This document shows positions 12,689-54,925 of a stretch of 64,000 bases of DNA, piece after piece (position 1 is the first letter of the stretch; each line of letters opens with the position of its first letter). The translations under genes and the position numbers were made by a program. The notes below the pieces were generated by a model. The model ran no database searches. It saw only the letters and a program-made list of their open reading frames with translations, and was not told the origin of the DNA. Location of the stretch: the IMG/VR virus record IMGVR_UViG_3300021256_000060; one strand, written 5' to 3'. Source of the stretch: an uncultured virus (IMG/VR IMGVR_UViG_3300021256_000060) (taxonomy: Duplodnaviria > Heunggongvirae > Uroviricota > Caudoviricetes).

Positions 12689-13012
12689 TTACAATTCCAA
12701 TAATGCTTCAATCTGATCTATGTATTCAATCTGCATATCACTAGGAATTACTGCATATGCAAGAAGAGGATCTTTAGCCTTATCATCTACCTCTTCAATA
12801 GTTCTAGCACAGTAGAGAGTCATAACCCCACCTTGAGACCTATCTTGTACAAGCCCAATATGGATTTTCTTATCCTTAAATAGATCTACCATAGTAGCCC
12901 AAGCCATAGCCTGTTCTTGGTTAATTCCCTTACGTTCTTCGATATGAGAGATGAAATATCCTCCTTCTTTGTTACTAGAATCCTTCTTAATACCAATCAG
13001 TTTGTAGTTCAT
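12689..13012 (-). CDS. hypothetical protein
   Basis: ORF with GGAGG SD and downstream hairpin. Confidence 0.6.
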   Translation of the reverse strand: MNYKLIGIKKDSSNKEGGYFISHIEERKGINQEQAMAWATMVDLFKDKKIHIGLVQDRSQGGVMTLYCARTIEEVDDKAKDPLLAYAVIPSDMQIEYIDQIEALLEL

Positions 13013-13125
13013 ATTATCAACCTCCTATATATCTATACTTAATGGTTATTGAAAAAATCAAAATAGAAAAGGGTAGGCATGGAGGCCTACCCTAGACTAT
13101 TTTTTAGAAGTTTCATGATGCCAAG

Positions 13126-13206
13126 TGACGGAACTACTCAGACTCGCACTGAGATTCTCAGGAAAAATTGGCAAAACCTGAGCTTCTACTATTGAATTAT
13201 AGTTCC
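13126..13206 (-). ncRNA. tRNA-like RNA with expanded 14-nt anticodon loop
   Basis: acceptor GGAACTA/TAGTTCC, D-arm, anticodon stem TCAGG/CCTGA around TTTTGCCAATTTTT, T-arm CTCAG-TGCGAGT-CTGAG, 3' GTCA. Confidence 0.7.
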
Positions 13207-13338
13207 ATGAATCTAGGACTCGAACCTAGATTAGTTTATATCAATGGGAGCTTCCAACCCATTTGATATCGGAGGTGGGAGAGGTAGAAAAACATATAAA
13301 AAGCCCTCTCCCATAGCAATAGGATTCTACTGCTACAT

Positions 13339-13347
13339 GTAATATAT
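13339..13347 (-). promoter_or_regulatory. putative early promoter ATATATTAC
   Basis: exact TATATTAC upstream of the hairpin and tRNA-like cluster. Confidence 0.55.
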
Positions 13348-13375
13348 ATTGACTCTCGAAAATGAGGGGAATATC

Positions 13376-13415
13376 AAAAAAGAAGAAGAATAGGTGATCA
13401 GACTATCTTCTTCTC
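13376..13415 (-). terminator. intrinsic terminator
   Basis: GAGAAGAAGATAG...CTATTCTTCTTCT followed by TTTT on the minus strand. Confidence 0.7.
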
Positions 13416-13424
13416 ATTCTCGGA

Positions 13425-13754
13425 TGTCCCAAATAAGACCAATAGTTATCCAGACTAACCTAAGCATACGACCATTACCCACTATCAGTGAGTAAGACGT
13501 TCTTCGGTTTAATTTATAGACAAAAGAACATCCGAACTAGTTAAGGAATCGCGACTAGGTGACTAATATGTCGTTATCAATTCCTTCATACTTCCAGTAC
13601 TGCTGTATAGTATGGCCCGCACCTTCGCGGTTCACGGAATCAAACTAGTGTACCAGTCTTGGACTCTGATACTTTGTCTTTTAGACTCATCTCTGCACCT
13701 ACGAGAAGGTCTCGGTAATTATAAATAATACTCAAGGATAGACTACTTGAAACA
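13425..13754 (-). ncRNA. large structured non-coding RNA (RNase P-like topology, unconfirmed)
   Basis: no ORF; 12-bp terminal helix including G-U pairs, nested long-range helices, own promoter (13822-13833) and terminator. Confidence 0.6.
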
Positions 13755-13821
13755 GCATTCTCATGAACACATATTCATCTCTCCGTATGAATATATCAAG
13801 AATTACATCAATCTCCACGAG

Positions 13822-13833
13822 TACTATATTGTC
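13822..13833 (-). promoter_or_regulatory. putative late promoter GACA-N6-TA
   Basis: GACA-atatag-TA upstream of the non-coding structured region. Confidence 0.55.
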
Positions 13834-13857
13834 ACTAGTATATTTATTTTTTAAATA

Positions 13858-13943
13858 TGGTGCGCCCGACAGGAATCGAACCTGCACGTTCTTAAAACAA
13901 TGGATTCTAGGTCCACAGCGTCTGCCTATTTCGCCACGGGCGC
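13858..13943 (-). tRNA. tRNA-Leu (anticodon UAG), encoded CCA, C at position 33
   Basis: cloverleaf GCGCCCG...GTGGA-CCTAGAA-TCCAT, long variable arm, GGTTCGATTCC, A73, CCA. Confidence 0.9.
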
Positions 13944-13949
13944 AAAATA

Positions 13950-14471
13950 TTAAATCCTAAAGTATGGATTATAATAGTTATAATAAGTATTATTATAAAT
14001 AGTACAAGCCACGCCTTTATATCTATCACCAATAGGGATACCTAGTTGATTATATCTAGCTATTCTGCCAGCACATCTTTTACTACAAGTTATAACCCTA
14101 TTTTTGTGCCTATTAAGATCACGATAGTACCAACCCTGTCGTTTAGCAGTCCAAACAAATTCTTTTCCGCAAACATCGCACTTCATGATCTTATCGAAAT
14201 ATTTAGAATTTTCAAGAGCATGTAATCTTATGTGCTCTTCCTTGGTCATCACAATCAAATTAGATGGGTCATTATTCATTGGATTTTCATCTTTATGATG
14301 CACTTCTTCATCATCCCTCAGTTCTCTTCCCAATACTTTTTCCATTATGACTCTAGGATACGATTTAGAAGTATGAGATCCATCAGCTTTATAGAGTGAT
14401 ATTCTACTTCTTCCAGTCTTATCAATATGAATATTATATTCTTCATCTTCCATATAGTACACCATCCTCAT
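13950..14471 (-). CDS. HNH homing endonuclease-like protein
   Basis: EVHHKDENPMNNDPSNLIVMTKEEHIRLH plus CxxCGKEF...CSKRC zinc motif. Confidence 0.85.
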   Translation of the reverse strand: MRMVYYMEDEEYNIHIDKTGRSRISLYKADGSHTSKSYPRVIMEKVLGRELRDDEEVHHKDENPMNNDPSNLIVMTKEEHIRLHALENSKYFDKIMKCDVCGKEFVWTAKRQGWYYRDLNRHKNRVITCSKRCAGRIARYNQLGIPIGDRYKGVACTIYNNTYYNYYNPYFRI

Positions 14472-24854: not shown

Positions 24855-25325
24855 TTATTTCTTTTCGGATTTCTTTTGCTCAATCAGGATATCTCTAACC
24901 TTCATAAGAGCTTTGCCAAGAGCGTTGTACCCCTTACCAGTATCTTGACGTACTCCAATCCAGTCATCCATATGAGTAACCACATGTATCAGATTCTTAG
25001 GATAAGTAGCAATCAACCAGTTTGCCAAAACATGATTCTTGAACTTCAGTAATAATACCTTTTCTAAGTAGAACTCTTTGTTCTCCTCATAATCCTCATT
25101 ATAAGGAAGATTTGCTACTTTCTGTCTAGCTTTATTAGGACTAAGTCTAGCAATCTTTCTCATTATCTTGGGATTAGTACTCTTGAGAGCATAGAATAGA
25201 GTAGCAGCGCATGGGTACGTTTCTCCTTCATACTCAATAGCACTTGGGAACTCCAAGGTCAAATACTTATAACCCGTTTTTACGAAGTCGCGAATCTCTC
25301 CATTAGTTCTGCTTACCGTTGACAT
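24855..25325 (-). CDS. NADAR (YbiA-like) domain protein with degenerate active-site motifs
   Basis: IEYEGETYP...YALK, LKF...LIAT, DDWIG...GKGYNALGKALMKVR. Confidence 0.8.
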   Translation of the reverse strand: MSTVSRTNGEIRDFVKTGYKYLTLEFPSAIEYEGETYPCAATLFYALKSTNPKIMRKIARLSPNKARQKVANLPYNEDYEENKEFYLEKVLLLKFKNHVLANWLIATYPKNLIHVVTHMDDWIGVRQDTGKGYNALGKALMKVRDILIEQKKSEKK

Positions 25326-40531: not shown

Positions 40532-41740
40532 TCACAACTCGTCTCTTACTTTGGGGTCACCTACGGTAATGACTTTCTTTTCAGTTTCGAATTGAGAGAA
40601 AAAGCTCTTCTTGTTCTTCTGTACTTTAGCCTTGTCCTTACTTTGGTTTGTACCAATAGGACCAGTACCAAAGCCTAGATTCGTATCCATTCCACTGACC
40701 ATATTAAAGAAGTTATCTTTTGCCAAGTCAGTCTTTTTCATAGCTCTTTCGAACTTATGATATACTTCCTTTATCTCATCAATAGGCAACTTCATACCGC
40801 TAGCGATTACGGCTACACTATCAGTACCATCCCCATCCTGCTTATGACGGAAGATCTCAGTCGGGAATCCATACTTCTTGATGAGCTGGTCATACCCTTC
40901 ATCAATCAATCCCTGAATACGATTAGAAGCAGATACAATAACTCCTAATCTCTTGGCAGACGGTTCAGTAGGAAGGGATACAGACTTATCAATCATAGCC
41001 TGAATAGAATCATTGAACTGTTCAGGTTCGCTGATCTTTTCCAGATCTATGGATTCTACAGTCATGTATCCAGGAGCTGTATTGAGCTTGTAGAGGTCCA
41101 TGTTATCTACATTAGAATCAGACGGATTCAAATCCTTACCAATCAGAATACGAACTCTCTGGCTGAATACCTTATTGGCATATTCTTCAGCAGCTCTACG
41201 GTTATTATCTACCATAGGGAGACAGCTCTTATTGCTGATGGATTGAATCACCATGTTTTCATCGAGATCTTTGAACCATTCAACAGTATTTTTTAATCCA
41301 CGAGCATCATCCTCAAATCCAGTAAATGATACCATGTTTACAGGAATACCATTAGGGAGTTCATCGTTCTTAGTAATGGCCTGGATGTATTTACCCAGAA
41401 TAACAGATGCGCCAGAACCGGTGCCGCCTTCTGAGCTGGTTACAATATGAATTATCTTTTCATCACCATCAATGAGAGCATCAATCGGATTCTCATCAAC
41501 ACTCTGCAGATATTCGATCATCATCTTCTTAGCAAGATCACGATCTTTCCCGCAACCGCCAGTACCTCCTATAATCAAAATATTATCTCGATCAAAATCT
41601 TCTGGAAGATCTCTATCGGTGGAATTGATCAAGAGACATTCGGTGATATCAGCTACCCCGTCTTTGATTAGTTGGATTATAGCTTTATTACCTGCTGCTC
41701 CAACCCCAATGTACTTGCACTTCAAACTCAAATTAAACAC
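40532..41740 (-). CDS. tubulin/FtsZ-superfamily GTPase (PhuZ/TubZ-type)
   Basis: IGVGAAGNK, LINST, GGCGKD, EGGTGSG signature, VDxxD T7 loop. Confidence 0.9.
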   Translation of the reverse strand: MFNLSLKCKYIGVGAAGNKAIIQLIKDGVADITECLLINSTDRDLPEDFDRDNILIIGGTGGCGKDRDLAKKMMIEYLQSVDENPIDALIDGDEKIIHIVTSSEGGTGSGASVILGKYIQAITKNDELPNGIPVNMVSFTGFEDDARGLKNTVEWFKDLDENMVIQSISNKSCLPMVDNNRRAAEEYANKVFSQRVRILIGKDLNPSDSNVDNMDLYKLNTAPGYMTVESIDLEKISEPEQFNDSIQAMIDKSVSLPTEPSAKRLGVIVSASNRIQGLIDEGYDQLIKKYGFPTEIFRHKQDGDGTDSVAVIASGMKLPIDEIKEVYHKFERAMKKTDLAKDNFFNMVSGMDTNLGFGTGPIGTNQSKDKAKVQKNKKSFFSQFETEKKVITVGDPKVRDEL

Positions 41741-54622: not shown

Positions 54623-54925
54623 ATTAATTCCTCCTTCACTAATATAGTATATATTACAAAAAAATATTAGTCGATAGCCAGGGAAGGATTATTAATAACC
54701 CTCCCCATACTATCTTTGTAGCATTAGTGCTGTTTGGCATTGGCGATGTAACCTACAAGGAGCCATCCCAAATAGAGTGCTCCTAAGATCCCAAAGCCAA
54801 CCATGATTTCCTCAAATGAACCACTCGTATACATAAGTCATTCCTCCTCTATAAATATCAGTAATAGATTGAAAAATATTTCTATCAAGCGGCATACAAA
54901 ATCAATCATTTCGAACACCCCCAGA

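Follow-up and report, generated by a model that had tools for sequence, protein, structure and literature searches.

What kind of RNA is encoded between a transfer RNA (tRNA) gene and a terminator in a large phage of the ruminant gut? The question is raised by positions 13376–13833 of a 64,000-nucleotide (nt) stretch of an uncultured virus (IMG/VR record IMGVR_UViG_3300021256_000060), hereafter the window, which is part of a jumbo phage of sheep or goat gut origin that resembles AR9 and PBS1. From the letters alone, the original prediction described there a stand-alone structured RNA of the minus strand, whose helices follow each other as in ribonuclease P (RNase P) RNA, and proposed either a divergent phage RNase P-like RNA or a new large class of non-coding RNA. 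The second proposal is supported, since the RNA is expressed, is kept in a relative and belongs to no Rfam family; the first is not. The locus probably, though by no means certainly, encodes a stand-alone minus-strand non-coding RNA in a phage tRNA island, which would belong to a new family of stable tRNA-island RNAs and would bind rather than catalyse. All features below lie on the minus strand unless stated otherwise, and their coordinates are given in its reading direction.

Extent of the accumulated RNA

Contigs from three metatranscriptome runs, each of a different study (X3, X6 and X10), and from one DNA run (X4) were compared with positions 12800–14200. The stretch is contained in 20 runs from 9 studies, including 7 RNA runs, all of the ruminant-gut type (sheep, goat, other gut). 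The cover of the RNA runs is limited to about 13439–13785 (to 13799 in X3) and to the tRNA-Leu gene; no bin from 12800 to 13410, or from 13975 on, shows any depth in them. The flanking genes, the terminator and the downstream tRNA-like genes are uncovered in the RNA runs and covered by the DNA run, which fills 27 of the 30 bins of 12800–14200. The RNA signal is therefore not carried-over DNA.

The contigs outline a discrete species of about 330–350 nt (13785 to 13439), which accumulates far above the neighbouring phage genes. One X6 contig of 347 nt spans exactly 13439–13785 without a difference from the window, and an X10 contig of 326 nt spans 13439–13764; a 339-nt contig in X6 represents a second allele. 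The main X3 contigs lie inside 13448–13799. The contigs from two studies stop exactly at 13439 with no loose end, at a point where the DNA run continues. The minus strand is assigned to this species of about 347 nt from its G-U pairs (see below). An X3 contig (13770–13909, 0 differences) joins tRNA-Leu to the RNA, which indicates that longer transcripts exist. The RNA runs also contain further variants: 16 of the 21 X3 contigs show less than 95% identity, and 4 of these less than 90%.

At the 3′ side, the predicted intrinsic terminator is present (13415–13376, a hairpin GAGAAGAAGAUAG-loop-CUAUUCUUCUUC followed by U6) and is identical in the closest relative (G001, described below). Neither the terminator nor the 23 nt ahead of it, a trailer (13438–13416) that includes the 3′ strand of the proposed terminal helix P1 (13436–13425) and that of another long-range helix (helix B), is found in any RNA-run contig. 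At the 5′ side, the promoter proposed at 13822–13833 was not recovered by the consensus scan, which instead lists TGGAGA-16-TATATT with an upstream TG at 13817–13790; its extended −10-like element, TGATATATT (13798–13790), is a candidate promoter.

A different motif, ATATACTATA-N3-RTGR, recurs just upstream of the ribosome-binding sites of many minus-strand genes of the window (for example at 54652, 51588, 42946, 38185, 32366, 23423, 16559 and 12621). It is probably the phage's own promoter, and it is unlike both AR9 consensus elements. Upstream of the RNA, only a poor and mis-spaced match to it is seen, and for this reason no phage-type promoter is claimed there.

Fold and second allele

The RNA locus is also present in the closest record, a complete virus genome of 266 kb (G001), with 92% identity (811/877), and a 228-kb metagenome contig (JGI, L020) is 100% identical to the G001 allele. 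The differences between the alleles concentrate in the RNA (about 8–12%); by alignment count there are about 4 in the adjacent 425 nt or so (13424–13000). They include single-base insertions or deletions at 13722, 13713, 13665 and 13623. The overlapping open reading frames (ORFs) code for only 31–65 amino acids, and two internal ones are broken by these insertions or deletions; the locus is therefore non-coding, as predicted.

Every string quoted in the original prediction was found at its place on the minus strand. The description of a non-coding minus-strand RNA stood, in contrast to the weight given to its 12-base-pair (bp) terminal helix and to its promoter. A core model (R1, 177 columns, covering the core only) was aligned from the two alleles. 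It comprises helix D (13678–13673 / 13524–13519), hairpin E (13672–13650) and a four-way junction, which together would make the core 13678–13519 a three-way junction kept in the second allele, a fold that the comparison supports but does not prove. Of the 51 core pairs, 42 are invariant, 7 show a one-sided change that keeps the pair, 1 shows a compensatory change (G-C to A-U) and 1 is broken. Eight of the nine varying pairs thus remain paired, mostly via G-U. Paired cells make up 99% of the core alignment, versus 29–42% when the partners are slid.

In full, helix D pairs AGACAAAG (13679–13672) with UUUUGUCU (13525–13518), 8/8 and invariant in both alleles, and is chosen both by the minimum free energy (MFE) fold and by alifold. 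Hairpin E (GUAUCAG-loop-CUGGUAC), already noticed in the original prediction, forms 7/7 pairs in both alleles, and all three differing pairs are kept. The four-way junction (13649–13536) is closed by the 7-bp helix C (ACUAGUU/AACUAGU, 13649–13643 / 13542–13536) and encloses three hairpin arms, C1 (13638–13616), C2 (13614–13587) and C3 (13584–13545), in which six pairs differ (four one-sided and kept, the compensatory one and the broken one).

Outside the core, hairpin H1 (GUGUUC-AUGA-GAAUGC, 13770–13755) has 6/6 pairs in both alleles, two of which differ and are kept. Hairpin H3 (CGAGA-CCU-UCUCG, 13714–13702) has 5/5 pairs in both, one of which differs (G-C to G-U); an alternative to it pairs ACCU with AGGU (13710–13697). 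The joining strand UCGGAUGUUC (13535–13526) follows helix C; in a longer precursor it would be the 5′ part of helix B. Hairpin F (13507–13459) is a hypervariable peripheral arm: G001 has a different, shorter hairpin in its place, and loose ends at 13513 in X3 and X6 reveal a third version. The 3′ tail (13458–13439) contains GGAUA (13451–13447), the partner of UAUCC (13740–13736) in the predicted helix P2. This pairing is present and can be extended, as the tail forms with 13747–13736 a helix of 11 bp with a bulged C in the window. The MFE fold of the 347-nt RNA is closed by this longer form (13747–13736 / 13451–13441), which is poorly kept in G001, where the alignment is gapped.

Longer transcripts could form other pairings at their ends. 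In helix B (13535–13525 / 13430–13420), 11/11 pairs form in both alleles and the one difference (U-A to U-G) is kept. Helix A joins 13827–13814, a strand upstream of the main RNA contigs, to 13738–13725; it has 13/14 pairs in the window and 14/14 in G001, where both differing pairs are paired. P1, of which the predicted pairing of UGUUUCAAGUAG (13754–13743) with UUAUUUGGGACA (13436–13425) is complete (12/12, four of them G-U), would compete with helix B for the trailer. These three helices are ascribed to a precursor only, because each of them requires sequence outside the 13785–13439 species.

The folding energies show a limited signal. The z-score is −1.82 for the 458 nt and −1.74 for 13785–13439; it reaches −2.64 for the 116-nt four-way junction, where 2 of 200 shuffles fold as well. 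Thermodynamics alone would therefore not establish the RNA. The main argument for the minus strand comes from the substitutions: most of them create or resolve G-U pairs, and many are A-U to G-U or U-G to C-G, the plus-strand equivalents of which are mismatched.

The RNA has few known relatives. Exact-pattern scans of IMG/VR and of JGI metagenomes returned the G001 allele only, and the scan of GTDB genomes gave two chance hits, neither with an R1 match. A blastn search in distant mode of 50,697 phage records matched tRNA-Leu and nothing else, searches with the flanking proteins recovered only G001, and the window holds no second copy. Four relatives found through the RNA polymerase beta subunit (G002–G005, 59–62% identity) give neither a blastn match to the RNA nor an R1 match, and the genes that flank the RNA have no synteny in these relatives. 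A 369-nt gap in the tRNA cluster of one of them (G003) was considered as a homologue and rejected: it contains an ORF and no RNA. A non-exhaustive search of the literature on ROOL and GOLLD RNAs, rumen jumbo phages and phage RNase P RNA found nothing that describes this RNA.

Explanations of the RNA

The explanation that we favour, a stable binding RNA of the tRNA island, would work as follows. A longer transcript would be made, either by read-through from tRNA-Leu or from a start near TGATATATT. It would end at the terminator (13415–13376), and both ends would then be trimmed back to the folded body. The RNA would most likely act as a stable folded particle, like ROOL, GOLLD and T4 RNAC/RNAD, and neither as a ribozyme nor as a messenger. 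A protein, the tRNA-like RNAs or copies of the RNA itself are candidate partners, and hairpin F might be a peripheral arm that is either tolerated or sets specificity.

Several points weigh against this explanation. The contigs carry neither strand nor true ends, and their coincident ends are a weak hint. In X3, the deepest of the runs, low-depth contigs extend to 13799 and bridge to the tRNA. Helix A, with two supporting changes, lies outside the accumulated species, and the mature form is possibly mis-defined. Only 4 nt separate TGATATATT from the contig end at 13785, a short distance for a start of the sigma-70/sigma-A type; given this spacing and the unconvincing match to the phage motif, 13785 may be either a start or a processing site. 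The covariation is thin, with only two alleles about 90% alike in the alignment, and the shuffle control is non-significant (129 to 255 of 500 shuffles match the observed values), which is why the core is rated as supported and not as proven. The 175-nt core has a z-score of −0.95, and its plus-strand complement −0.94. Finally, model R1 has no homologue in three more distant relatives and two fragments, and the family is so far known from one ruminant-gut phage lineage only.

The likeness to RNase P RNA is the most tempting of the other explanations. The RNA would then be either a divergent or minimal ribozyme of the RNase P kind or a tRNA-binding RNA derived from RNase P, in a form (about 13760–13420) that closes both P1 and P4 and targets tRNA and tRNA-like transcripts of the phage. 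The helix order does resemble that of type B: a closing helix, P2, hairpins, GAGAUGAGUCU (13693–13683, as predicted), P5, P5.1 and a P7-like helix that closes an S-domain-like four-way junction. Moreover, the gene lies among tRNA and tRNA-like genes, the P4-like pairing (13690–13683 / 13440–13433) has 7/8 pairs in the window, and the G001 segment, GAGAUGAGUCC, is one letter closer to the consensus quoted in the original prediction (U at 13683 in the window, C in G001). However, neither RF00010 nor RF00011 nor any other Rfam family matches the RNA at E ≤ 10 (12900–14100, and the 471 nt of 13370–13840 with lax filters), although RF00010 and RF00011 each recognise 11 of 14 control genomes, among them some whose RNase P is of the other type. 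At E ≤ 10, the same two models also give no match in G001, where the homologue lies, or in G002 and G003. Such a lack of alignment had been counted in advance against the RNase P idea. The comparison of alleles leads in the same direction: eight of nine varying pairs are kept in the core and none in P1, where three substitutions affect two terminal pairs and both are lost in G001. The 12-bp helix, which anchored the original prediction, is expected by chance, since 40 of 60 mononucleotide shuffles of the 458 nt contain an uninterrupted helix of at least 12 bp (G-U allowed). The P4-like pairing falls to 6/8 in G001, with one change kept and one broken (two alleles). The rival pairings do better, with helix B complete in both alleles and helix A complete in G001. 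In addition, the 13439 end shared by the contigs of two studies excludes the 3′ strand of P1 and all but two bases (13440–13439) of that of P4. That the locus encodes any RNase P-like RNA is thus very doubtful, and the chance is just as slight that the precursor (about 13785–13420) is a phage-carried RNase P derivative, whether a minimal ribozyme or a catalytically dead descendant. If it were, the ribozyme would cut tRNA and tRNA-mimic transcripts of its phage, or the S-domain-like junction of the dead form would grip tRNA elbows and sequester or shield tRNAs in infection. No phage-encoded RNase P RNA was found in a non-exhaustive literature search.

The RNA might also be a stable by-product without function, namely a structured spacer of the tRNA operon that survives nucleases after excision of tRNA-Leu. 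This would agree with the X3 contig that bridges tRNA-Leu and the RNA, with the free replacement of hairpin F, with the absence of the RNA from the more distant relatives searched, and with a divergence between alleles far above that of the adjacent 13424–13000. The last point may equally reflect a recombination tract beside a mobile HNH gene. A mere spacer accounts poorly for stem substitutions that keep pairing in eight of nine core cases, for a dedicated terminator, and for the abundance of the RNA in the runs of three studies in which the neighbouring genes are unseen; we regard this explanation as unlikely, but one to be reckoned with. A cis-acting leader or attenuator is less credible still, and must be called improbable. 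There, 13436–13420 would alternate between 13754–13743 and 13535–13525 and would control read-through of the terminator into the tRNA-like genes. The trailer indeed takes part in two strong and mutually exclusive pairings (P1, 12/12, and helix B, 11/11), the terminator directly follows the RNA, and co-oriented RNA genes lie downstream. Yet the accumulated species lacks both trailer and terminator, no riboswitch or T-box matches, no RNA-run cover is seen downstream, and CAATATATATTAC, an AT-rich element similar to the early promoter consensus of AR9 (available text of PMC5312081), belongs to the downstream array itself. Transcription from the plus strand, which would make the minus-strand fold irrelevant, is highly improbable. 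The contigs are strandless and the 175-nt core folds about equally on both strands, but in the two alleles together nine G-U or U-G pairs would turn into A-C mismatches, the neighbouring genes and tRNAs are all on the minus strand, and the terminator is predicted to function on that strand only. The slightest chance of all is given to a group I intron or another RNA linked to the HNH homing endonuclease ORF next to it (13950–14471). Introns do occur in AR9-type phages, for example in g189 (available text of PMC5312081), and the accumulated RNA has a terminal G. On the other hand, Intron_gpI (RF00028) does not match at E ≤ 10, no gene is interrupted (the joined flanks give, by eye, neither an ORF nor a tRNA), the RNA runs contain no joints, and G001 has the RNA but no HNH gene.

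Phage setting and comparison with known RNAs

The window encodes a beta subunit of a split multisubunit RNA polymerase; among its named relatives, the best are those of the Bacillus phages AR9 and PBS1 (31% identity). A DNA ligase, a topoisomerase II and a ribonucleotide reductase are also encoded. Nearly all genes are on the minus strand, as are the genes and tRNAs next to the RNA. A NADAR-domain protein is encoded at 24855–25325 (minus strand, E 1.7e-13), and a weak tubulin/FtsZ-like match, under the Pfam cut-off, lies at 40532–41740 (minus strand). No reverse transcriptase, RNA-guided nuclease, RNA ligase or Ro-type protein was found in Pfam and PHROGs scans of the neighbours and of the window.

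On the minus strand, the order is HNH ORF, tRNA-Leu, candidate RNA, terminator, an array of four hairpins, a tRNA-like gene, a second terminator (13093–13070) and the next ORF. The tRNA-Leu gene (13943–13858, anticodon UAG, called by ARAGORN and Rfam) is directly upstream of the RNA. The HNH ORF (HNH_3 plus treble-clef) is free-standing, beside tRNA-Leu. Between aligned flanks, the window has 645 nt and G001 has 276 nt; the HNH gene is considered mobile because it is present in the one and absent in the other. Its insertion may be why the tract through the RNA gene is more divergent.

Downstream, the four strong hairpins (13345–13207) have a z-score of −4.63 and are 100% identical in G001. The last of them resembles a canonical T arm (GGUUCGAGUCC), with no evident cloverleaf acceptor stem. 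The element CAATATATATTAC stands ahead of the array, at about 13351–13339; the AR9 early promoter consensus, to which it is similar, is given as AAATATATATTAT-N6-G in the available text of PMC5312081. The following tRNA-like gene (13206–13129) scores 44.8 bits with the Rfam tRNA model and is not called by ARAGORN. With an anticodon loop of 14 nt and a T loop that is non-canonical, it is a likely tRNA mimic; its G001 version has one additional C in the loop. No contig of the three RNA runs covers the array and this gene (13345–13129), which is no proof of silence, since such libraries frequently miss small RNAs.

ARAGORN and Rfam together call only one more tRNA in the window (56571–56486), also present in G001. 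It is of class II size with anticodon UUA, is labelled 'tRNA-Stop' by ARAGORN and would read UAA. Any recoding of UAA is not general, because translation table 11 gives long ORFs in the window. Downstream of this tRNA lies a non-coding gap of 1 kb, in which a repeat of the CTGATAAC/TTGATAAA type occurs at least five times (56440–56300); the copies are possible protein-binding iterons.

How does the RNA compare with known families? Rfam searches at the gathering threshold and at E ≤ 10 return only tRNAs and junk, and no match to a group I intron, T-box, transfer-messenger RNA (tmRNA), 6S RNA, signal recognition particle RNA, HEARO, ROOL or GOLLD was obtained with Rfam or ARAGORN. With RNase P RNA (type B, RF00011; type A, RF00010) it shares a similar size, a similar nested helix order, a four-way junction closed by a P7-like helix, GAG...AGUC(U/C) and the proximity of tRNAs. 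It differs from RNase P RNA in that no model matches, P1 is unsupported by variation, the P4-like pairing has one kept and one broken change in the two alleles, the conserved bases are degenerate and the 3′ strands lie outside the accumulated RNA. The claim of a phage RNase P, tempting but unsupported, is thereby removed. The four-way junction at 13649–13536 recalls a tRNA cloverleaf (RF00005), with its 7-bp closing helix and three arms. Unlike in a tRNA, the arms measure 23, 28 and 40 nt, no consensus of a T loop or an anticodon loop is found, and neither ARAGORN nor Rfam calls a tRNA or a tmRNA.

The RNA is more akin to ROOL (RF03087) and GOLLD (RF01998) in its phage origin, its tRNA-island setting, its ruminant habitat and its abundance. 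It differs from them by the lack of covariance-model similarity at E ≤ 10, by its much smaller size (about 347 nt, ROOL being about 580 nt long) and by its restriction to one lineage. According to the available text of a preprint (bioRxiv 10.1101/2024.12.08.627333), ROOL and GOLLD occur in phages and prophages, often near tRNA islands, are very abundant and multi-branched and form RNA-only cages, and their function and protein partner are described there as not known; ROOL was first seen in rumen data, and many GOLLD members exceed 800 nt. The present locus offers the same type of setting, in a jumbo phage between tRNA-Leu and tRNA-like genes, with cover of the RNA, and not of the flanking genes, in 3/3 RNA runs. 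T4 RNAC and RNAD (species 1 and 2) and the tRNA-like RNAs of T5 are likewise stable RNAs of a phage tRNA cluster whose role is not known. At about 120–145 nt they are far shorter than the present RNA, which shares their tRNA-cluster setting; this comparison is by description only.

ROOL, GOLLD and RNAs of the T4 RNAC/RNAD type make up an unexplained class of abundant, tRNA-adjacent phage RNAs. To this class, the present RNA adds a compact case of about 350 nt, with direct evidence of expression in natural ruminant-gut communities and a well-defined junction core. Its hypervariable arm, seen in at least three versions, marks where the RNA tolerates or needs change, and, being small, the RNA lends itself to probing, imaging and tests for partners.

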